Shown one piece after another: positions 2,609 through 18,916 of a DNA stretch of 25,239 nt (the first letter of the stretch is position 1; every line of letters starts with the position of its first letter). The DNA lies in NCBI GenBank assembly GCA_041177585.1, contig JBEDAZ010000544.1:1-25239 (forward strand), given 5' to 3'. Below the pieces are notes generated by a model that worked only from the letters and a program-made list of their open reading frames with translations, was not told where the DNA came from and did not search any database. This stretch comes from Planctomycetota bacterium. Lineage in GTDB: Bacteria > Planctomycetota > Planctomycetia > Planctomycetales > Planctomycetaceae. A program made the position numbers and the translations under genes.

Positions 2609-4012
2609 ATGTCTTACGAGTTGCGTCAGCGGGTGCATTTGTTGATGGGCGTTTGTTTTTGGGTATTGTTGGCGTTGTGGGCGGCGGTGGGTATTAGTGG
2701 ACAGAGTGCCGGGAGTGTTGGTGGTTTGCGGGAGCTTGGAGGATCATTATTGCGCTGGTCTGCGGGGTCGGCGTTGGAGTTGCGGGCGGCGGGAAGTGAG
2801 TACGTATTGCTGGCCGCTGGAGACCCGGTGTTTTTGAAGCTGGCAGATGGTCGAATTGTGCAGGCGGGGAACATTCGCAGTGCATTTGGTCCGGCGATGG
2901 ATCCAGTGTATACGAAGGAGGCGTTGGTTCGCCTGGACCGAGGTTTGCTGGATTCTCTGGGTGGCGGGGAATTTGTGCTGGAGGCTCATTCTGCGGCGAC
3001 ATCTCTGGATGGTGTCGTGGAGACATTATTTTCTGCGGAGCGGCGGCAGGAGATCTCAGCGCTGCTGGCTCGTGACTGGCGGCTTTATGGGGACGAGATT
3101 TCCACTCGTCTGGAGCCATTGCTGCGGGAGGGGGCCGCGAGCGTCGCGTTGACGGTGGAGCAGGAGTTGCCGAAGGTTCTGGAGCAGCATCGGGAGGATC
3201 TTGCGGGTCTGGCGGACCGGTATCAGTCGGAGATTGTGCGGGAGCGGATTGTTCCACTGGTTCGAAAAGAGGTGTTACCGATTATTGAGGAGGAGGTGCG
3301 TCCTGCGGCGCTGGAGCTGGGCCGTGAGCTTTGGGACCGTGTGTCCTTGTGGTCATTTACGTGGCGATATTTGTATGACGTGTCTCCGCTGCCGGAGCGA
3401 AATGCGGTGCGGAGTGAGTTTGAGCGATTTCTGCAGAAGGAGATTCGGCCGGCGATTGAGGCGCGAACGGACGATTTTGTGAATGTGACGGAGCGGATTG
3501 TGGCGCGGATCAGCCGCAATGAGGAGGTGCGTCGGGTGATTCAGGAGAGTTTACGGACAGCAGCGGCTGATCCGCAGTTGCAGCGGGTGATTCTGGATGT
3601 GTTTCGCGAAGCGATCGTGGAGAACGAAGCAGTTCGGGAGTCTGTGCGTCAGTGGGTGCAGAGTGAGGAGGTGCAGGAGGTGTTTCAGTTGGCTGCGGTG
3701 CGATTTGAGCCGACGGTGCGCGAGATTGGCGACTTGATCTTTGGGAGCCGGGAAGCGGGGATTTCTCCGGAGTTTGCTCGAGTGCTGAGGACTCAGATTC
3801 TGCTGAAGGACCGTCGCTGGCTGATGCTGGTGCCTGAGACGTTGGGGGAATCGTCTGCGGGTGGTGGTGCGGGTTTGGTGGTGCCTCTGCGGGCAGCTTC
3901 TGCGAGCATGCCATTTCCGCTCAGCTTTGAGGGCCGTTCTCAGAGTCCGCTTACGCGTCCCGAGTCTGTTGGTGTTCCGGAAGCGGATGGTGGCGGGATT
4001 TCGGGCGGCTGA
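2609..4012 (+). CDS. Hypothetical membrane-anchored, largely alpha-helical protein, ~467 aa
   Basis: Long ORF with an N-terminal hydrophobic helix (HLLMGVCFWVLLALWAAVGI) and an E/R/L-rich helical body. ATG 2609 has AAGGAG at 2593-2598; GTG 2585 is the alternative start. Confidence 0.75.
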   Translation: MSYELRQRVHLLMGVCFWVLLALWAAVGISGQSAGSVGGLRELGGSLLRWSAGSALELRAAGSEYVLLAAGDPVFLKLADGRIVQAGNIRSAFGPAMDPVYTKEALVRLDRGLLDSLGGGEFVLEAHSAATSLDGVVETLFSAERRQEISALLARDWRLYGDEISTRLEPLLREGAASVALTVEQELPKVLEQHREDLAGLADRYQSEIVRERIVPLVRKEVLPIIEEEVRPAALELGRELWDRVSLWSFTWRYLYDVSPLPERNAVRSEFERFLQKEIRPAIEARTDDFVNVTERIVARISRNEEVRRVIQESLRTAAADPQLQRVILDVFREAIVENEAVRESVRQWVQSEEVQEVFQLAAVRFEPTVREIGDLIFGSREAGISPEFARVLRTQILLKDRRWLMLVPETLGESSAGGGAGLVVPLRAASASMPFPLSFEGRSQSPLTRPESVGVPEADGGGISGG

Positions 4013-5136
4013 GAGGTGTATTGGATCAGTTGTTGCAGGATTGTGTGGCAGCGATCGATGCAGTGTTCCCAGCGGCCGGTTTTCTGGAGGGTTTCCTGAG
4101 CGGTGTGGGCGAGTTGCAGTGTGGGGAGCGGGTTTCGCAGCTGATCTTCGATCAGGGAGGCGATGCTGTGGGGGTCATTGGGTGGGAAGAGCCGGCCGGC
4201 ATCGCCGTGTTGCAGTGCATCGATACAGCCGTCGACGGCGGCGGCGGCGGCGGGGAGTCCGACGGCGTGGGCTTCGAGGAGAACGTTTGGAAGTCCTTCC
4301 CAGGCGGAGGGTAGTACGAGCAGATCGGCGGATTTCATGAGACCGGGGAGGTCATTTCTCCAGCCGAGGAACTGGACAGCGGAGGGATCCGGGAGTGAGG
4401 CTGCGAGTTGTTCGAGTTTGCGGCGCAGCGGACCTTCACCGGCAAAGAGGAGGCGGATGCGTTTGGGTAGTTGCTTGCGTTGCAGCAGGCGGAGGGCATC
4501 GAGGAGGAGGTGGGGTGCTTTCTGAGCGGTGAGTCGTCCGGCACTGAGGACGACAAAGTCTGTCTCGAGGAGCGTCAGGGAGCGGCGGGGCACGGCGGGT
4601 ATTTGGAGGAGGGAGTCGACGTCAACGCCATTGCGAATGATGGAGAAGCGTGTTTGGGGAATGCGGCAGAGTCGAGCGTGTTCGAGGGCGACAGTTTCGC
4701 TGCAGGCGATGTAGTGGCTGGTGAGCCGTTGAGTCCAGTATTCCGGGAGTCTGACGCGGAGGCGGTGGTCCGCGACTCGGATCCCGGAGAGGTGGCAGGG
4801 GACATGAGCGAGTGTGGCGGCGATTCGGCTGACGATATTCGCCTGATGGAGGAAGGAGAGTACGGCGATGGGCTGGATTGCTTTGAGGACTTTTGTGAGG
4901 CGGGGCAGCGCGAGGGGAGCCGTGAGGTGGTGTGCGTGCAGGGCGGTGACGGGGATTCCGTGGCGTTGTAGTTGTTCGGCGAGAGGTCCTGGGTTGCGGA
5001 GGCTGACGGCGTGAACATTCCAGGCTTTGGCGTGGAGGCCGTGGGCGATGCGGACGAAGGCTTTTTCAGCACCGCCTTCATCGAGTTCGGTGATGACCAT
5101 AACGAGGGAATTCTCGGGCTGGTCGAGTGGTGGCAC
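3940..5136 (-). CDS. Glycosyltransferase family 4 (GT-B), 398 aa
   Basis: ITELDEGGAEKAF N-terminus, SIIRNGVD, SAGRLTAQKAP, FLGWRNDLPGLMKSADLLVLPSAWEGLPNVLLEA (EX7E motif). GTG start. Confidence 0.93.
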   Translation of the reverse strand: MPPLDQPENSLVMVITELDEGGAEKAFVRIAHGLHAKAWNVHAVSLRNPGPLAEQLQRHGIPVTALHAHHLTAPLALPRLTKVLKAIQPIAVLSFLHQANIVSRIAATLAHVPCHLSGIRVADHRLRVRLPEYWTQRLTSHYIACSETVALEHARLCRIPQTRFSIIRNGVDVDSLLQIPAVPRRSLTLLETDFVVLSAGRLTAQKAPHLLLDALRLLQRKQLPKRIRLLFAGEGPLRRKLEQLAASLPDPSAVQFLGWRNDLPGLMKSADLLVLPSAWEGLPNVLLEAHAVGLPAAAAAVDGCIDALQHGDAGRLFPPNDPHSIASLIEDQLRNPLPTLQLAHTAQETLQKTGRWEHCIDRCHTILQQLIQYTSQPPEIPPPSASGTPTDSGRVSGL

Positions 5137-11340: not shown

Positions 11341-12771
11341 TCAGCTGATGATGGGGTGGATGACATTTCCGGCGACATCGGTCAGTCGGAAGTCGCGGCC
11401 GGCGTAGCGGAAGGTGAGTTGTTCGTGATTGAGTCCGAGGAGGTGGAGGAGGGTGGCATGGAGATCATGGATATGGACGCGATTATGGACGGCGCGGAAC
11501 CCGAATTCGTCCGTTTCGCCCCAGGTCATTCCACCGCGAACACCGCCCCCGGCGAGCCATGTGGTGAAGCCATAGTGGTTGTGATCGCGTCCGGAGCCAT
11601 TTTCGGAGGTGGGGGTGCGTCCAAATTCACCTCCCCAGAGGACGAGCGTGTCTTCGAGCAGTCCGCGTTGTTTGAGGTCTGAGAGCAGAGCGGCGATGGG
11701 GCGATCGATGGATTTGCTGAGATTTCGGGCGGCGTTGTTGTGATCGCTGTGAGTATCCCAGGGTTGTCCGTCGCCGTAGTAAACCTGGATGAAGCGGACG
11801 CCGCGTTCGGCGAGTCTGCGAGCGAGGAGGCAGCCGTTGGCGAAGTGTCCTTCTCCGTAGAGTTCGCGTGTGGATCTGGATTCCTGCTGGAGGTCGAAGG
11901 CATCGCTGGCGGTGAACTGCATGCGGAAGGCGGTTTCCATGGCTTCGATGCGGGCCTCGAGTTGGTTATCGCTACCGGTGCGTTCGATTTGGTGGCGATT
12001 GAGGCGAGCCATGAGTTCGAGTTGGGCAGCCTGTGTGGAGCGATTGGCGGAGGCATTGCGGAGGAAGGGGATAAGTCGATCGGGAGTGATATCGGAGTGA
12101 TTGATATAGGTGCCCTGATGGGAGCCAGGCAGGAAGGCGCTGGTCCAGAGAATTGAGAAGCGGACTGGTTTTCCGGGGCAGAGGACGACGTAGGACGGCA
12201 GGTTTTGATTTTCGGAGCCGAGTCCCCAGGAGAGCCATGAGCCCATGCTGGGGCGTGTGGGGAGGATGGTGCCGTTGTTCATGAGCAGCAGAGCGGGCCC
12301 ATGATTGGGGTTATCGGTGAAGGTGGAGCGGAGGACACAGATGTCATCGATGCAGTTTGAAGTGAGTGGGAGGAGTTCGCTGACGGGCACACCGCTTTGG
12401 CCGCAGGGTTTGAAGCGGAAGGGTGAGGGGAGGAGTCCGGCTGTTTTGCGTTCGGTGCGGAGGTCAGCCTGGGGCGGACGTTGTCCGGCGTATTTGAGGA
12501 GCGAGGGTTTAGGATCGAAGAAGTCGCCCTGGAAGGGGCCGCCGTTCATGAAGAGGTGGATAACGCGGCGAGCGCGGGGCGGGAAGTGCGTTGGCGGGTT
12601 GGCGGAGTGAGCATTGGATTCGGCGGCGAGAGCGGCGGCGAGGGCGGCTGAGCCAGCTCCGGCCCCAAGTTGTTTGACGAGGCTTCGGCGGGAGAGTGGG
12701 CAGACGGAGTCGGTTGTGTGGGGTAGGACTGGTTGGGTTCCTGAGAGTGGTACTTGTGGAGCGAGCGACAT
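11341..12771 (-). CDS. DUF1501 domain protein (Tat-exported, sulfatase/alkaline-phosphatase-like), ~476 aa
   Basis: Tat motif SRRSLVKQLG; RVIHLFMNGGP..DFFDPKP, GEFGRTP, GRDH, LAGGG, GETDEFG, HIHDLHATLLHLLG, FRLTDVAG. Start placed at ATG 12771; the 109-aa upstream extension in the ORF track runs through the AT-rich intergenic region. Confidence 0.92.
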   Translation of the reverse strand: MSLAPQVPLSGTQPVLPHTTDSVCPLSRRSLVKQLGAGAGSAALAAALAAESNAHSANPPTHFPPRARRVIHLFMNGGPFQGDFFDPKPSLLKYAGQRPPQADLRTERKTAGLLPSPFRFKPCGQSGVPVSELLPLTSNCIDDICVLRSTFTDNPNHGPALLLMNNGTILPTRPSMGSWLSWGLGSENQNLPSYVVLCPGKPVRFSILWTSAFLPGSHQGTYINHSDITPDRLIPFLRNASANRSTQAAQLELMARLNRHQIERTGSDNQLEARIEAMETAFRMQFTASDAFDLQQESRSTRELYGEGHFANGCLLARRLAERGVRFIQVYYGDGQPWDTHSDHNNAARNLSKSIDRPIAALLSDLKQRGLLEDTLVLWGGEFGRTPTSENGSGRDHNHYGFTTWLAGGGVRGGMTWGETDEFGFRAVHNRVHIHDLHATLLHLLGLNHEQLTFRYAGRDFRLTDVAGNVIHPIIS

Positions 12772-12793
12772 GGCAGCGACCCTGTGGTGCAGT

Positions 12794-12817
12794 TGGCCTT
12801 GCGGGGTGTTGTTTTGG
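12794..12817. repeat. Direct repeat copy B (TGGCCTTGCGGGG-TGTTGTTTTGG)
   Basis: Matches copy A; ends 22 nt upstream of the DUF1501 start codon on the minus strand. Confidence 0.7.
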
Positions 12818-13030
12818 TTGACTGTTAATGTAGTGTGGGAGCGAGGGAGAAAGCGAACTGGAAAAAGCGAGTGTGGCTGATAAAGGAAAAGTCGATGTGA
12901 TTGAGAGTAAATAGCAATGGGGAAGAAAACATGTGCGGAGTGGTGGAGACGTCCGCCATTTTTTTGCAATTTTCGGGAGAAATTTCTGGTGATCTGGTGA
13001 ATTGAGGCGTAGTTGGAGTGAGGATTTGTG

Positions 13031-13059
13031 TTGGTGAATTCGAAGGCCCGCATTACAGT
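13031..13059 (+). promoter_or_regulatory. Putative sigma70-type promoter TTGGTG-N17-TACAGT positioned for a leaderless transcript
   Basis: -10 hexamer at 13054-13059 ends 7 nt before ATG 13067; exact 17-nt spacer; no SD before the ATG. Confidence 0.4.
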
Positions 13060-13066
13060 GTAGCGC

Positions 13067-13465
13067 ATGCGATTTGTCACGTTCATCATGCTGCCCATCT
13101 GGTGTGCTCTGGCTTTGCTGGGGCAGTCGGGGTTGCATGCGCTGGCGGATCAGCTTGGCATGTGCTGCCATGTTGGAACGTCGGATTCGGCGAGTACAGA
13201 TGCGAAGGACGATCATTCTGATTGTGTTTTTTGCCTGCGGGCTCGGGCGTCGGAGAACGCTGATGAGGCTCCGGGTCCGGCGAAGCATGATGCTTCGAAC
13301 TGTCGTCTGTGCGACTGGTTTCTCTGCTGGAATGTCCAGTCTCCGGCGGGTGTCTCAGTCCTGCAATTTTCGCTGTTGACCTTTCAGGACGTATGCATTG
13401 AATTGACGGCTGCATCCGGTCGTCCGATTACGGCAGTTTCTCGTGGGCCTCCCGCTGTGGTTTGA
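13067..13465 (+). CDS. DUF2946-like Cys/His-rich small protein with C-terminal RGPP motif (putative metal-sensing arrest/leader peptide), 132 aa
   Basis: N-terminal hydrophobic segment, CCH, HSDCVFC and HDASNCRLC motifs, and SRGPPAVV at the C-terminus (RGPP = 13442-13453). Confidence 0.8.
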   Translation: MRFVTFIMLPIWCALALLGQSGLHALADQLGMCCHVGTSDSASTDAKDDHSDCVFCLRARASENADEAPGPAKHDASNCRLCDWFLCWNVQSPAGVSVLQFSLLTFQDVCIELTAASGRPITAVSRGPPAVV

Positions 13466-13619
13466 AGGCCTGTTTTTGCGCGAATCGTGTTGACGTGTTG
13501 CAGATTTTTTGGCTGCGCGCGTGAGCAGTGCAATCGCGGTGTTTGAGCTGCCATGGCCTGTGAGAGGTGTGGCGGCTGACTGTCCTGCCTTCAGTATCTG
13601 CGTGGGATTAGGATCAGCG

Positions 13620-14981
13620 ATGTCTGTATCTGTTTCCGGTCAGCGAAGACCGGTTGTGCCCGTTTCGGGTGCTCTGGGGCAATCCGTCATTCTTCGAGCG
13701 ATACGTGCTGCGAACCGCATGGACGGAGTGTTGCGCGCGGATTTCTGTCCCTGGGCGAATCGTTGGGTGTACTGGATAAAGGATCCCTTCTGGTGTTTGT
13801 TGATGGCGGTGGGGTTATCAGCAGCCGTCGGTATTTTTGTGAACCCGATGGTGTTGCTGTTTTCTGTCGTCCTGAGTGTCTTGGGTGTCCTGGCAGCTCT
13901 GCTCCCGTGGCTGACGATGCGGGGTCTGGAGTGTTGTTTGAGTCTGGAGCAGAATCGCGGGCGGGTTGGTGAGGTTCTGGGAATCAGGCTGCGGATCCGA
14001 AATCGCAGACTCTGGCCTGCATGGGGGGTGGCATTGACGGGGGGCATTCCTGTTAGCGGCAGTGTGAGCGAGTGGGGGGGTACAGATGCTGCGGGAATCG
14101 CTTTGGCGAAGATCCCTGGTCGGAGCGAGATGGAGTTTGTCTGGCGGATGCGTCCATCAGTTCATGGAAGCTATCCCTCGGGCAATCCGGCGATAGAGAC
14201 GGGGTTTCCATTTGGAATTTTTCGTGCGCGGCGTTTCGTGGATGTGACGTGTCGGGCGATCGTCTGGCCGGCGACGGTTGCGATGAATGGCCTTCCGGAC
14301 TCGCCGGTTTTGAATGGTCAGGAGGACTCGATGTCGGATCGATCTCCTGGCGAGCTGGGTGACCTGCTGGGGACGCGGTTCTTTCGTTCCGGGGATTCGC
14401 TGCGCCGTGTGCACTGGGCGCAGACGGCGCGTCAGCAGCAGTTGGTGGTGAGTGAGCGGCAGTCAGTGGGTGGGAGTTTGGTGAGTGTGTTTGTGGACAG
14501 CCGGAAGGAGAGTTATGTGGCTTCCGTTGAGGGGGGCATTGGGAGCGGATTCTCATGGGAGCTGGCGATTCGAGTGGCAGCGAGTGTTTGTGAGTCGGTG
14601 TATCAGCAGCATGGGCGAGTGGAGTTGGAATTGTGTGGGCGGCGTTACGAGACAGGGGAATCGATTCAAGGTTTTCGTCAGTTGATGGATGCGTTGTCAA
14701 CAGCATCACCCGGTACCGGGGATGTGGGGTTTGGTGTGGCAGAACGACGCGGAATGAGGGGTGAGGTGTTGCTCACTATCAGTACTCCGGAGGGCATTCG
14801 GCGGGGTTTTGCGGAGACCGCGAGTCGGGGACGTGTAGCGGAACGGCGGATTTGTGTTTCGTCCGGGTCGGAGAATGCTGACAGGGATTTGATTCTGGCG
14901 GGTTGGAGGGTAATCAGGGACGGCAGGGAGTTAGGAGGGCAGTTACCGCGGCTTTGGAAGGAATTGTGCAATGTCCGCTGA
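13620..14981 (+). CDS. DUF58 domain protein (MoxR-associated) with N-terminal TM helices, ~453 aa
   Basis: TGFPFGIF, GDLLGTRFFRSGDSLRRVHWAQTARQQQLVVSERQ (DUF58 core), WELAIRVAASVC. ATG 13620 has AGGA upstream and is preferred to TTG 13509. Confidence 0.9.
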   Translation: MSVSVSGQRRPVVPVSGALGQSVILRAIRAANRMDGVLRADFCPWANRWVYWIKDPFWCLLMAVGLSAAVGIFVNPMVLLFSVVLSVLGVLAALLPWLTMRGLECCLSLEQNRGRVGEVLGIRLRIRNRRLWPAWGVALTGGIPVSGSVSEWGGTDAAGIALAKIPGRSEMEFVWRMRPSVHGSYPSGNPAIETGFPFGIFRARRFVDVTCRAIVWPATVAMNGLPDSPVLNGQEDSMSDRSPGELGDLLGTRFFRSGDSLRRVHWAQTARQQQLVVSERQSVGGSLVSVFVDSRKESYVASVEGGIGSGFSWELAIRVAASVCESVYQQHGRVELELCGRRYETGESIQGFRQLMDALSTASPGTGDVGFGVAERRGMRGEVLLTISTPEGIRRGFAETASRGRVAERRICVSSGSENADRDLILAGWRVIRDGRELGGQLPRLWKELCNVR

Positions 14982-17418
14982 GCAGCGTTTGACGGGGCGA
15001 TTGATTAGGGGGCGTTCCTCTGCAGCGGCTTGGGCGGGGGGGAGTTCGAGCGACCTTATTCCGCAGATCCTGACGGTGTTACTGGGGATACTTGGGGGTT
15101 TGATCTTTCTGCTGACGGACGCGGATGGTAATCGTGGAGAGGCAGAGGTCTGGTTGCAGTGGGGTCTTGAGTCTCTGGTCGTCGTAGGTGCTGCTTATGC
15201 AGTGCATCGGAATCGGGTTTGGTTTGAACAGCATCCGGTGCAAATGCCCGTGGTATTAGGTGTGTTGATTTTGAGTTTGTTGTGGGAGCCGTTGCAGAGG
15301 CTGTTGCTGGGGACGGGACGTCCCTTTGAGATGTTGGTGATGCACAGTCAGAAGAATGTGATGCTGGCGCTGGCTGCGACGGCGATGGCTGTGGGATTCA
15401 GGCGTTTGAGTGTGTTTATCGGTGTGGCGATTTGTATTTTTTGCTGCGCGATGACTCGGGATAATCGCGTGATCTGGTTTTCGGCCATGTATGGGGTTCT
15501 GTCGATCAGCTGGCTGATGGCGTGTTACTGGAGTGGTTTGCAGGGGCGCATGTTGCCTGGGCAGAGGACTCGTTTACCGTTGCGATGGATATTTGCAGCG
15601 CCGGCATTGGGACTCCTGACGGCAGCGGGATCCGCGGGAGGCGGCCGTGAGCTGATTTCTTCGGCGCGAGGATTTCTGCCGGGTTCCGGGGGTGACGGGG
15701 ATTACAGTGAGTTTTCGCGGGGTGGGGTGAATGACGGTGAGAGCCTTGTAGCGGGTGAGAATGACATTCGGAGTTTTGGTCCTCTGGAAGATGCGCCTTT
15801 TGCGGATTCAGAGAAGCCTTCGCTGTATGATGTGGTGAATGATCAGTTTGACGAGCCGGTACGGAGGAACCGTCAGTTTCAGCCGGCGATTGCATTGCCA
15901 CCGGAGATGATGGCGGAGGTGAAGGATCGTCTGAGTCGTGTGCAGCAGGCTGGCCGGGAGTTTTCGCTGGTGCGTCGTCGGTCTTCTGCGGAGCGCCGCC
16001 GTGCAAAGTCCATTTCGAGTGCTGCGATGTTTTACGTTGCCGGCCGGGCACCGCTGCATTTGCGAACGGAGGTTTATGATGTTTTTGATGGAGTGAACTG
16101 GCATCCGGTTGGCAGCCCGACTGATGGATTGCCTTTGCATCTGGTGGAGAGTGGTGGCCGGCCGTGGCTGCGATTGCCACAGGGCCCAAGGGGTCTCGAC
16201 TTGTTTACTCACACGGATCTTCACGTGGTTCGCCCTGTGAACCTGAAGTCACCTGTGATACCTGGTCCACCGGGGCTGCGTCAGTTACACATTGACCGGG
16301 TGGACCGTCCCGACATGTTTATGTGGCATGCACCAGGTGTTGTGCGTTTGACGGGGGATTCCATACCTGAGCTGGTGGCGATTCATTTGCAGTCTGATGT
16401 CATGGATCCTGCGCGATTGCGCGAGGGGCGACTGCCGATGAATTCGCAGGGCCGGGAGATGCTTGAGCAAACGCTGCCTGCAGGGGAAGAGTTGGCTGAG
16501 TTACGTCGATTGGCGGTGGAATGGACAGCGGAGACGCCACGAGGCATGGCCCAGGTTGATGAAATCTGCGATCACCTGCGGAGTGAGTTTGCTCTGATGC
16601 GCGGAATGCCGATTGATGAGCAGAGTGAGTCTCCGATCAGGGATTTTCTCCGCGTGCGGCGCGGTCCGGAGTATTTGTTTGCGTCAACTGCGGCGTTGAT
16701 GTTGCGGAGCCTTGGTTACGCAACGCGTCTGGTTTCTGGGTTTTACGTGCGTCCAGAGCGTTACGAGTCACAGCGTCGGCAAACACCGGTACTTGGCGAG
16801 GATGTGCATTTCTGGTGCGAGGTATTGGCGGGTCCGAGCACATGGGCGACGGTGGAAGCTTGTCCCGGTTACGAGGTGGAGGGACCTCCACCTGGGCTAT
16901 GGCAGCGTTTCTCCGTCGTAATGTGGGGTGTCATGAGTTCTGTGATTCGCAACTGGACATTGTGGAGTGTGATGTGTGTGGTGTTATGGGTGTTATTTTG
17001 GCAGAGGGCCTGGTGGATTGACGGGATTCGGACTGCAGTCTGGCGTCTGTTTCCCGCATCGACGGTTTGGGGCCGAGTGCGGCAAACGGTGCGGCTGTTG
17101 GAGGGAAGGCTGATTCTGGCTGGCTTGAAGCGACCTGCGCATATCACGCTGCGGCGGTGGCTGAATGGGCTGCCATTTCAGGAACAGGAGGCTGTGCGGC
17201 AGTTGGTGGCGCTGGCGGATGCAGCGGCATTTGGTGTGGGCGTCGAAGGGGACTACGTGGTGGCAGCCGGCGTGGGCGATATCCGGGTGAGTTGTGTCGA
17301 GCTGCAGCGTCAGCTGAATCTGAGGCGTTGCCGGGCGGCAGCGCGTGAGCGGCAAACGGCACTTCGATCCGGAGCTGAGAGGTCTTCGGGCGTATGGATT
17401 GGGAGGTCAGCGAAATGA
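14971..17418 (+). CDS. Transglutaminase-like domain membrane protein (TgpA/DUF3488-type architecture), catalytic Cys apparently absent, 815 aa
   Basis: N-terminal multi-TM region; LHLRTEVYDVFDGVNW; GPEYLFASTAALMLRSLGYATRLVSGF and HFWCEV, W..VEA.PG core; C-terminal TM and tail. Overlaps the DUF58 gene by 11 nt. Confidence 0.88.
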   Translation: MSAEQRLTGRLIRGRSSAAAWAGGSSSDLIPQILTVLLGILGGLIFLLTDADGNRGEAEVWLQWGLESLVVVGAAYAVHRNRVWFEQHPVQMPVVLGVLILSLLWEPLQRLLLGTGRPFEMLVMHSQKNVMLALAATAMAVGFRRLSVFIGVAICIFCCAMTRDNRVIWFSAMYGVLSISWLMACYWSGLQGRMLPGQRTRLPLRWIFAAPALGLLTAAGSAGGGRELISSARGFLPGSGGDGDYSEFSRGGVNDGESLVAGENDIRSFGPLEDAPFADSEKPSLYDVVNDQFDEPVRRNRQFQPAIALPPEMMAEVKDRLSRVQQAGREFSLVRRRSSAERRRAKSISSAAMFYVAGRAPLHLRTEVYDVFDGVNWHPVGSPTDGLPLHLVESGGRPWLRLPQGPRGLDLFTHTDLHVVRPVNLKSPVIPGPPGLRQLHIDRVDRPDMFMWHAPGVVRLTGDSIPELVAIHLQSDVMDPARLREGRLPMNSQGREMLEQTLPAGEELAELRRLAVEWTAETPRGMAQVDEICDHLRSEFALMRGMPIDEQSESPIRDFLRVRRGPEYLFASTAALMLRSLGYATRLVSGFYVRPERYESQRRQTPVLGEDVHFWCEVLAGPSTWATVEACPGYEVEGPPPGLWQRFSVVMWGVMSSVIRNWTLWSVMCVVLWVLFWQRAWWIDGIRTAVWRLFPASTVWGRVRQTVRLLEGRLILAGLKRPAHITLRRWLNGLPFQEQEAVRQLVALADAAAFGVGVEGDYVVAAGVGDIRVSCVELQRQLNLRRCRAAARERQTALRSGAERSSGVWIGRSAK

Positions 17419-18374
17419 TTGTGGCGGAGTCAGTGTGCTCTCTGGAGGGTGTGGATATAGCGGCCGTTGAGTGCCTGCGGAAGCGCCTGAATCTGGCGTT
17501 ACGGGGGAAGCCGGAGGTGGTGGAGTTTGTGATTCTTGGTCTTTTGGCAAACGGTCATTTGCTGCTTGAGGACAAGCCGGGGCTGGGCAAGACGACATTA
17601 GCGAAGGCTTTGGCGCACGCGATTGGCGGCCGATTCGCGCGTTGTCAGTGCACGCCGGACTTGCTGCCGGCGGATATCACGGGCTTCAGTTTATTCAATC
17701 AGAAGACTCAGGAGTTTGAGTTCCGGGAGGGTCCGGTCTTTGCGGATGTGTTGCTGGCGGACGAAATCAATCGTGCGACTCCGCGGACGCAGAGTGCTTT
17801 GCTGGAGGCGATGGCGGAGCGGCAGGTGACGGTGGATGCGCGGCGTTATCCGCTCAGTGCGCAGTTTCTGGTGATCGCGACTCAAAATCCCGTTGACCAG
17901 CATGGAACATGGCCTTTGCCAGAGGCGCAGTTGGATCGATTTTCGATGAGGTTGAGCATTGGATATCCGGCGGCGGAGGAGGAGTCGGAGATGCTGTTGC
18001 AGGCGACTCAGGGACAGTGCAGTTCAGTCGACGCGCAATCACTATTTGAGCCTGGGCAGCTTGCTCGGATGCAGTCTTCAGTAACAGGAGTTTCTGCGGC
18101 GGCATCTGTTAGAGATTACATGGTGCGTTTAGCTGGGGCCACGCGTCGCCACCCGGCGGTGCCATTGGGATTAAGTCCACGTGGACTACTCACCTGGCTG
18201 CGAGTTTCTCAGGCGCGGGCATGGGTTCAGGGGCGTAAGTTTGTATCGCCGGACGACATTCAGGACACGGCGGTTGCGGTGCTGAACGTTCGGCTGGGGG
18301 TGGGGTTTCAGGAGTGTCGGGGCGTGGTGGAGGAGATACTGAGTCAAACGCCGGTACCGGAGTATGATCGATGA
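17415..18374 (+). CDS. MoxR-family AAA+ ATPase, ~319 aa
   Basis: Walker A LLEDKPGLGKTT, QCTPDLLPADITG, Walker B LLADEINRATPRTQSALLEAMAE, IATQNP, LPEAQLDRF, GLSPRG. ATG 17415 overlaps the upstream TGA (ATGA) and has GGAGG upstream. Confidence 0.96.
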   Translation: MIVAESVCSLEGVDIAAVECLRKRLNLALRGKPEVVEFVILGLLANGHLLLEDKPGLGKTTLAKALAHAIGGRFARCQCTPDLLPADITGFSLFNQKTQEFEFREGPVFADVLLADEINRATPRTQSALLEAMAERQVTVDARRYPLSAQFLVIATQNPVDQHGTWPLPEAQLDRFSMRLSIGYPAAEEESEMLLQATQGQCSSVDAQSLFEPGQLARMQSSVTGVSAAASVRDYMVRLAGATRRHPAVPLGLSPRGLLTWLRVSQARAWVQGRKFVSPDDIQDTAVAVLNVRLGVGFQECRGVVEEILSQTPVPEYDR

Positions 18375-18916
18375 GTGAATCTGGCTGTCCTGAGCAGTTT
18401 TTCTGGATGCCTCGCGGGAGTGTTCTCAGCTGGGGCATTCTAATGGTTACTCTGGTGTCGGGCTGCGGGAGTGGTGAGCAGTCGATCAACGGAGCATCGG
18501 GACCGTCTGGAGATGGGTCCGTTGCGCAGCGGGTTGTCGACGAGCCAGGGAGTCATGATCACGTGCATGATCACGGGCATCACCGTCCGCGTCATAAGCC
18601 GCGGAGTTTTGATTTGCTTCCGGGTTCTTTGCTGAGGCGGTTACCTGAGGATGGGGACGTTTCGAGACTTAGCCGGCGCCGAATGCGTGAATTGCAGGAG
18701 ATTGTTGGGTGGATACCGGAGTTGGCTGCGGACAGCGAATTAAAGCGGTCGGGCTTTGAGCAGGCAGTGGCTTGTCAGGAGGATTTGCAGGTTGTTTTGT
18801 CGGCGATCGCTTCTGGACGGGATGTAGAGATGCGGTTGTGGTCGGAATCTGTGGAGCGACTGCGGGTACTGGCGGAGTCACTGAAGGGTGTGGAGTCTGG
18901 TGGGCAGCGGGAGTAA
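18371..18916 (+). CDS. His-rich putative lipoprotein, 181 aa (or ~169 aa from Met13)
   Basis: Lipobox LVSGC after a hydrophobic stretch; HDHVHDHGHHRPRHKP tract; helical C-terminal half; ATGA overlap with the MoxR stop. Confidence 0.78.
   Translation: MSESGCPEQFFWMPRGSVLSWGILMVTLVSGCGSGEQSINGASGPSGDGSVAQRVVDEPGSHDHVHDHGHHRPRHKPRSFDLLPGSLLRRLPEDGDVSRLSRRRMRELQEIVGWIPELAADSELKRSGFEQAVACQEDLQVVLSAIASGRDVEMRLWSESVERLRVLAESLKGVESGGQRE

Follow-up and report, generated by a model that had tools for sequence, protein, structure and literature searches.

We analyzed a 25,239-nucleotide stretch of DNA from a Planctomycetota bacterium (contig JBEDAZ010000544.1 of assembly GCA_041177585.1; hereafter, the window) that carries, on its forward strand, a small open reading frame (ORF) followed by genes for a DUF58 protein, a TgpA-like membrane protein with a transglutaminase core, a MoxR AAA+ ATPase, a lipoprotein and a permease. 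A first-pass annotation, made from the letters of the DNA alone, had proposed that the small ORF encodes a metal-sensing ribosome arrest peptide that controls the genes behind it. Here we describe this ORF, which we call the leader, its relatives and its operon, and weigh how far the proposed function is supported. The features of the locus are collected in Table 1.

The leader ORF and the operon behind it

Translation of the leader bore out what the first-pass annotation had read from it: a product of 132 amino acids with a hydrophobic N-terminus, nine cysteines (residues 13, 33, 34, 53, 56, 79, 82, 87 and 110), four histidines (residues 24, 35, 50 and 74), and the motifs CCH (33–35), HxxCxxC (50–56), HxxxxCxxC (74–82) and RGPP (126–129). 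Three residues (AVV) separate RGPP from the stop codon, and Arg126 lies 44 positions after Cys82. By inspection, with no signal-peptide predictor run, the N-terminus comprises Arg2, a 16-residue hydrophobic core (residues 3–18) and a conserved G19-x-x-G22-x-H24-A-L-A27 segment.

The leader is a real, conserved gene. Homologues at 96% and 59% identity are present in a metagenome protein collection, and eight of 24 same-genus genomes contain a full-length match at 30–49% identity. In an alignment of ten sequences (A1), the invariant positions were M1, L9, W12, A16, L18, G19, G22, H24, L26, A27, G31, C33 and C34 in the N-terminal half and H74, D75, N78, C79, L81, C82, W84 and R126-G-P-P129 in the C-terminal half. 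A profile search of 1.84 billion protein representatives (E ≤ 0.001) returned 113 proteins, 110 of which have a C-terminal R(G/A)PP motif (106 RGPP and 4 RAPP), followed in 108 of these 110 by a tail of 1–9 residues. In the resulting wide alignment (A2, 108 sequences), C79 and C82 were conserved in 100%, H74 in 81% and D75 in 77%, and across the wide family G19 is kept in 92% and H24 in 94%. Thus, of the cysteine and histidine motifs singled out by the first-pass annotation, HxxxxCxxC and the cysteine pair of CCH proved to be conserved but HxxCxxC did not: two orthologues have His-rich runs in place of residues 50–56, of which Cys56 alone is semi-conserved. The position of the Cys-Cys pair speaks for the start codon, as nine of the ten aligned sequences have it at residue 33; in the tenth (P0003), which was cut one residue before its matching Met, the position reads 34. 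The RGPP codons differ synonymously among species (for example, CGT GGG CCT CCC, CGT GGT CCG CCA and CGG GGT CCA CCG), which places selection at the level of the peptide rather than the RNA.

These features bear on the trivial alternative that the leader is a chance ORF in GC-rich DNA. The motif alone would be weak evidence against chance, as seven of the 21,904 six-frame ORFs of at least 80 amino acids in the same genome have RGPP within their last 14 residues. Only three of the 21,904, however, combine CxxC, 41–46 residues, R[AG]PP and a short tail, and the full-length homologues with conserved motifs, the synonymous codon changes and the conserved gene order described below have already refuted this alternative for practical purposes. 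The organism also turns up in metagenomes of freshwater and aquaculture (13 studies), and the listed runs that contain the locus are all DNA runs.

Behind the leader, the five genes are closely packed, with an 11-nucleotide (nt) overlap between the DUF58 and transglutaminase genes, an ATGA, a second ATGA between the MoxR and lipoprotein genes, and a 6-nt gap between the lipoprotein and permease genes. This tight coupling differs from the 154 nt that separate the leader from DUF58. The order leader–DUF58–transglutaminase–MoxR–lipoprotein–permease is retained in all seven complete same-genus loci, and an orthologue of the permease was found in 16 of 24 same-genus genomes. The first-pass annotation had named co-occurrence of leader and operon as a check of its proposal, and the two do occur together in every genome with an assembled upstream region. 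DUF58–transglutaminase pairs are likewise headed by family members of no more than about 25% identity. Three operon-like loci farther removed have no intact leader. The predicted lipoprotein has no Pfam or NCBIfam hit. It contains the His-rich stretch HDHVHDHGHH, and its orthologues keep the lipobox cysteine and acidic and His-rich stretches, with HxxPxHKPxxF conserved in seven of seven.

A related DUF58–transglutaminase–MoxR locus in a genome of another genus of the same class (G025) is preceded by a long ORF (L046:2279-3220). Its N-terminal part resembles the leader, with a hydrophobic start, a Cys/His-rich run and HDPSTC, but it is without CxxC and RGPP and continues into lipoprotein-like sequence. 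To judge from this arrangement, it may be a decayed or fused leader.

The first-pass annotation had made conservation of RGPP in orthologues a touchstone of its proposal; RGPP is invariant in A1, and its replacement, where there is one, is RAPP, itself a proven arrest core. In same-genus genomes missed by the single-sequence query, the upstream family member ends in RAPP with the 43-residue spacer kept, so that RGPP and RAPP are exchanged between species of one genus at the head of the same operon. In one RAPP-type locus, a DUF1559 gene lies between leader and DUF58 (genome G001, L038:1220-1642, 1945-2877 and 2970-4361), and in another, ORFs resembling insertion sequence (IS) transposases do (genome G003, L044:5513-8042).

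The genome of the window, which is 73% complete, contains two leader paralogues, each directly upstream of a DUF1559 gene whose product has a prepilin-type N-terminus. Because both paralogues precede DUF1559 genes, the sensor design appears to have been put to use again for a second planctomycete gene family, which is very large.

Table 1 The leader, its parts, its operon and two paralogues in the same genome. Positions are those of the window, except for the paralogues, which are given by locus.
Feature	Position	Strand	Basis or remark
Leader ORF, 132 amino acids, divergent DUF2946/CruR-CutF-like, RGPP-AVV-stop end	13067..13465	+	Translation and homologues
Residues 1–27, export signal or N-terminal membrane helix	13067..13147	+	Inspection, AlphaFold2 and conservation
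Cys33-Cys34-His35, upstream cysteine pair	13163..13171	+	C33 and C34 invariant in A1
H74-D-x-x-N-C79-x-L-C82-x-W84, invariant CxxC, predicted sensor motif	13286..13318	+	A2
Residues 83–125, 43-residue spacer (ruler)	13313..13441	+	Length fixed, sequence unconserved
RGPP (CGT GGG CCT CCC), predicted arrest core	13442..13453	+	Invariance; Pro128 in P site, Pro129 codon in A site
Spacer from leader stop to DUF58 start, 154 nt	13466..13619	+	Stall presumably transmitted here
DUF58 protein, 453 amino acids	13620..14981	+	PF01882, 24 bits; synteny
TgpA-like membrane transglutaminase-core protein, 815 amino acids	14971..17418	+	PF01841, E 4.5e-11
MoxR AAA+ ATPase, start at ATG 17394 or at ATGA overlap at 17415	17394..18374	+	PF07726 AAA_3, E 4.8e-61
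Lipoprotein, 181 amino acids, lipobox Cys, His-rich	18371..18916	+	Sequence features
ArsP_1/DUF318-type permease, 511 amino acids	18923..20458	+	PF03773, E 3e-16
Paralogue ending ARGPPCC, and DUF1559 gene	L022:410-886, 1008-1928 (contig C690)		PF11162 match
Paralogue with RAPP motif at end, and DUF1559 gene	L023:832-1227, 1255-2469 (contig C198)

A spacer of fixed length between CxxC and RGPP

The first-pass annotation had suggested that the stretch between the last CxxC and RGPP is roughly as long as the ribosomal exit tunnel, and this idea was strengthened. The second cysteine of CxxC lies exactly 44 positions before the arginine, with 43 residues intervening, in all ten sequences of A1, whereas the segment from the Cys-Cys pair to CxxC varies from 46 to 62. 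Two orthologues have a 6-residue insertion just after CxxC that is offset by a 6-residue deletion before RGPP. Among the relatives from the profile search, 76 of 110 have a CxxC-to-Arg distance of 44, and in 109 of 110 it falls within 43–47. For A2, we compared spacer lengths in the 102 rows in which H24, C79, C82 and R126 all align. The ruler has a mean length of 43.2 residues with a standard deviation (SD) of 0.8 (43 residues in 74 rows; 42–46 in all 102), while the upstream spacer, from His24 to Cys79, has a mean of 61.1 with an SD of 8.7 and a range of 45–86. At the same time, the ruler segment has the lowest column conservation in A2 (0.22). A spacer threading the ribosome tunnel would be expected to keep its length and leave its sequence free, and the contrast between SDs of 0.8 and 8.7 provides clean comparative evidence that this spacer is a molecular ruler. 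Its 43 residues also match the 45-residue spacing of CruR, a copper-responsive leader peptide of Bordetella pertussis.

AlphaFold2, given A2 as input, modeled the leader with a mean predicted local distance difference test (pLDDT) of 75.5, as a helix at residues 2–30 (pLDDT >90), a disordered region at 31–75, a short helix at 76–88 around CxxC, and coil thereafter. The predicted fold is consistent with a signal or anchor plus a largely unstructured sensor, as in CruR.

The model and the alignments also allow us to consider whether the leader acts mainly as a mature protein, an exported or membrane-anchored metal-binding or redox partner (metallochaperone or substrate) of the MoxR/DUF58/TgpA machine, in which RGPP would be incidental or merely slow translation. 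Such a role would suit the strict co-occurrence of peptide and operon, the conservation of the N-terminal His/Cys cluster beyond what a signal peptide needs, and the moderate to high AlphaFold2 confidence over residues 101–130. It would not explain why the stretch between the motifs keeps its length but not its sequence, nor why RGPP is invariant though avoided in bacterial proteomes; most of the model is coil or disordered, and the comparable CruR is poorly structured and undetected as a protein. Moreover, paralogues and family members head unrelated DUF1559 genes, which argues against a dedicated subunit. We therefore think a mainly mature function unlikely and prefer the interpretation of the leader as a regulatory nascent chain.

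Relationship to DUF2946 and to known arrest peptides

The first-pass annotation had likened the leader to ORFs of the DUF2946 family (PF11162). This likeness held for many of its relatives and for a paralogue but not for the window sequence itself, which has no hit to any Pfam model (E ≤ 10) or NCBIfam model. Among the profile-search relatives, 43 of 108 match PF11162 at E ≤ 0.1, the best at 1.7e-6. In the same genome, the paralogue on contig C690 matches at 25.3 bits, over the gathering score of 23.7 bits, and an hhalign comparison of this paralogue with A1 gave a probability of 92.6% across the region from HDxxNCxxC to RGPP. In a feature search of ESM Atlas, the nearest clusters were Planctomycetota hypothetical proteins (0.97), and 49 of the 100 hits shown fell in a row whose cluster has PF11162 in 16% of its members; the structure hits there all had template modeling (TM) scores below 0.32 and are meaningless. 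Since many relatives and the own-genome paralogue match DUF2946, we regard the window leader, on homology, as a distant relative of this family and a divergent leader of the CruR/CutF type, though no formal Pfam member. That it functions as a regulatory peptide of this kind, from a divergent planctomycete branch of DUF2946, is a conclusion that we consider likely.

Much of what is known of such peptides comes from two systems. CruR (Bp2923) requires RAPP, CXXC and the spacing between them for copper control, and its target is a downstream TonB-dependent receptor, controlled via Rho-dependent termination (PMC9426467). In the DUF2946 family as a whole, which comprises >2000 proteins, the CXXC–RAPP spacing is kept within 1–2 residues (Roy et al., mBio 2022, PMC9426467), and members have an export signal in >95% of cases, are operon-first genes and are followed by long intergenic regions; 'a few' members were noted in Planctomycetes (Roy et al. 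2022, PMC9426467). CutF of Rhodobacter capsulatus senses periplasmic copper, and its stall melts a stem-loop over the ribosome-binding site (RBS) of cutO (Ozturk et al. 2023; bioRxiv 10.1101/2025.02.05.636593).

The window leader shares with CruR its small size, a predicted export signal and its position at the head of an operon, the long spacer to the next gene, the invariant CxxC, an R-x-P-P motif three residues before the stop codon, the fixed inter-motif spacer (43 residues against 45 in CruR), a semi-conserved extra cysteine and, by its model, a largely unstructured chain. It differs in having RGPP instead of RAPP, in escaping detection by PF11162, in an additional Cys-Cys/His cluster, also invariant, that closely follows the signal region, and in its target, a MoxR/DUF58/TgpA/permease operon instead of a TonB-dependent receptor. 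Like CutF, it would be an exported nascent-chain sensor with two upstream cysteines, a Cys motif and a predicted C-terminal stall, and it precedes genes that plausibly handle metal excess, so that a stall prolonged by metal and turning the operon on is possible. By contrast, CutF has CxxxC and a PPP run relieved by elongation factor P (EF-P), whereas the leader has CxxC and RGPP, of the class not relieved by EF-P, and the stem-loop that shields the RBS in CutF has no significant counterpart in the window.

Fujiwara et al. described RAPP and RGPP as versatile arrest cores unrelieved by EF-P, with RGPP the most robust (EMBO J 2025, PMC12992588). Proteomes avoid both motifs, yet small exported proteins encoded ahead of diverse genes are enriched for them close to the C-terminus; in the CruR RAPP stall, toeprinting located the third motif residue at the P site and its fourth at the A site (PMC12992588). 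The leader has the marks of this class: fewer than 300 amino acids, a predicted export signal, RGPP near the C-terminus and a co-directional downstream gene. In a supplementary table of the same study, 'DUF58 domain-containing protein' is preceded by RGPP upstream ORFs in 33 cases and by AGPP ones in 5 (adjusted p 1.2e-8), with a signal peptide called by deepTMHMM in 31 of the 33 RGPP peptides (PMC12992588). The table further counts 116 RGPP against 24 AGPP upstream ORFs before 'DUF1559 domain-containing protein', and its example sequences from Pirellulales genomes have the same HDxxxCxxC...RGPP pattern as the window leader (PMC12992588). The pairing of our two paralogues with DUF1559 genes agrees with this table. 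The main texts of Roy et al. 2022 and Fujiwara et al. 2025 make no mention of DUF58, MoxR or transglutaminase. The statement of the first-pass annotation that no such operon had been described as a target is thus right as far as discussion in the literature goes, but overlooks the 33 cases tallied in that supplement. Leaders of this kind and their DUF58 context are, in short, already catalogued but never discussed, and the window peptide is an addition that Pfam does not see; the full operon, the ruler, the RGPP/RAPP swap and the link to PF11162 were worked out here.

An export signal and an R-A/G-P-P type core near the C-terminus are also found in ApdA, ApdP and SecM, and the leader might by this token be a monitor of the export machinery whose stall is released by translocation force alone, with no ligand. 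ApdA, ApdP and SecM precede secDF or secA, sense that force and are without a conserved CxxC at a fixed distance. In the window, the downstream genes are not sec or yidC, and both the fixed distance of the invariant CxxC and the DUF2946 homology point to ligand sensing; we consider a pure export monitor very unlikely.

The predicted stall, its signal and its read-out

We propose the following mechanism for the leader as a CruR/CutF-like sensor. The nascent chain would be targeted to the Sec translocon by its N-terminal signal or anchor, and the ribosome would arrest once Arg-Gly-Pro occupies the P site and the A site has reached the second Pro codon (nt 13448–13453). At this point, CxxC would lie 46–49 residues from the peptidyl-transferase center, just beyond the tunnel exit or in the translocon, and the upstream Cys-Cys/His cluster would already be outside. 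A thiol-binding ligand on the cysteines, most likely a transition metal, with Cu or Zn favored, would set the duration of the stall; metal occupancy might alter the force on the chain, possibly because metal binding and disulfide formation compete, a proposal made for CutF. How long the stall lasts would then determine the expression of the five coupled genes for DUF58, the TgpA-like transglutaminase, MoxR, the His-rich lipoprotein and the SO_0444-like permease, the read-out being RBS unmasking, Rho or another process.

The computational checks that the first-pass annotation had suggested all turned out in favor of its reading. Our confidence differs among the parts of this scheme, all of which we read from sequence. 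A ribosome stall at RGPP is highly probable, control of the operon by the leader is probable, and metal as the signal is the somewhat favored option. As for direction, CutF-like induction, in which metal prolongs the stall and switches the operon on, is a weak guess placed barely ahead of CruR-like repression; we lean slightly toward metal-induced expression because the operon, with its His-rich lipoprotein and SO_0444-like permease, resembles an export or sequestration set.

The signal might instead be the thiol-disulfide state of the envelope, with disulfides between Cys33/34 and CxxC forming during export, pulling the chain and releasing the stall. The leader indeed has four conserved cysteines in two pairs, the CutF model invokes just such disulfides, and the enrichment of RGPP upstream ORFs extends to DsbA and thioredoxin genes. 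The operon, however, has no Dsb or thioredoxin gene, while it does encode a lipoprotein rich in His and a permease with metal-transporter relatives, and some orthologous leaders contain His-rich inserts. Redox sensing is in our view improbable, and marginally more so than the mature-protein role considered above. The hints of a metal in this context are three: the lipoprotein, the distant SO_0444 resemblance of the permease, and the His-rich inserts, which occur in two orthologous leaders.

The stall is presumably transmitted in the leader–DUF58 spacer, the end of which is defined by the DUF58 start at ATG 13620, set by an ATGTCTG sequence conserved in relatives. Orthologous spacers range from 127 to 447 nt, and an alignment of those of eight relatives contained no alignable regulatory element beyond the DUF58 start. 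The window spacer contains no sigma-70-like promoter, and an Rfam scan at E ≤ 1 returned no family match besides two noise hits and no riboswitch. Three weak terminator-like hairpins all lie inside the leader ORF, a count not above that in shuffled sequences.

Two further observations concern the spacer. The 11-mer CGTGTTGACGT, at positions 13486–13496 of the window, also occurs in the spacers of two diverged relatives (L026 and L028) at differing distances; its single copy in the window is within chance expectation. Possible readings are a −35-like element and a regulator site, in which case the operon would have a second promoter. At loci L025–L028, a Shine-Dalgarno-like GAGGG lies 8–9 nt before the DUF58 start, and a short local hairpin overlapping it, seen by eye only, lies within the 25 nt before the DUF58 ATG, with arms that vary by species (for example, TCTCT/AGAGA and CTTC/GAAG).

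Several findings weigh against the proposed mechanism. PF11162 does not recognize the window leader even at E ≤ 10. A score of 69.7 bits with NF033936, the model of the SO_0444 Cu/Zn efflux family, leaves the permease far under the cut-off of 300, and for this reason the metal link of the operon is weak. Within the leader, AlphaFold2 assigns a pLDDT of 85–90 to residues 101–130, which is odd for a purely passive spacer, and the N-terminal G-x-x-G-x-H-A-L-A is conserved beyond signal-peptide needs, so that the peptide may also have a role of its own. As to the read-out, the spacer has no intrinsic terminator, and the two known routes were each sought in vain. The minimum free energy (MFE) fold of positions 13430–13660 pairs the RGPP codons with the DUF58 RBS region (z −1.64; 14.5 expected pairs), but the stall-site/RBS duplex of −18.7 kcal/mol is equaled or exceeded in 65% of background windows and is absent in six of seven orthologues; we rejected an RBS-masking stem as evidence because the duplex is no better than background and unconserved. 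The spacer contains 36% G and 21% C with no C-rich stretch, G still exceeds C in its best 78-nt window, and the nearest relatives of the window likewise have G-rich, C-poor spacers. Composition is only a proxy for a Rho utilization (rut) site, but with no C-rich, rut-like region evident, a CruR-like Rho mechanism is unsupported here.

Upstream of the leader, a DUF1501 ORF on the opposite strand (11341..13098, −) stays open for 585 codons and overlaps the leader start by an apparent 32 nt. Its Pfam domain begins only at residue 176, and the true start is likely Met110 (about nt 12771), with a twin-arginine-like SRRSLVKQLG closely behind it. The overlap is thus probably not real; with this start, the DUF1501 gene and the leader are divergent neighbors about 295 nt apart.

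To our knowledge, metal-sensing arrest peptides have been studied in only two proteobacteria, as CruR and CutF, and we know of no organism in which the MoxR–DUF58–transglutaminase triad has a known function. The Pseudomonas aeruginosa homologue TgpA is essential, and we know of no role assigned to it; a literature search found nothing linking the triad to copper. Our analysis extends the CruR/CutF design, with a predicted export signal, CxxC, fixed ruler and R(G/A)PP, to a branch so divergent that Pfam misses it, places it in a phylum with an unusual cell envelope, and shows the interchange of RGPP and RAPP within one genus. A conserved upstream sensor would be a direct hint at the signal that the MoxR–DUF58–transglutaminase triad answers, and a first regulatory clue to it. 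We speculate that in Planctomycetes, and perhaps more widely, the MoxR–DUF58–TgpA triad may be a transition-metal handling machine that is switched by a nascent-chain metal sensor with a 43-residue ruler, MoxR-driven insertion or extraction of metal being coupled to the His-rich lipoprotein and the SO_0444-like permease. We hold this idea tentatively and would sooner expect it to fail than to stand; if true, it would open the first way into the function and regulation of the triad.

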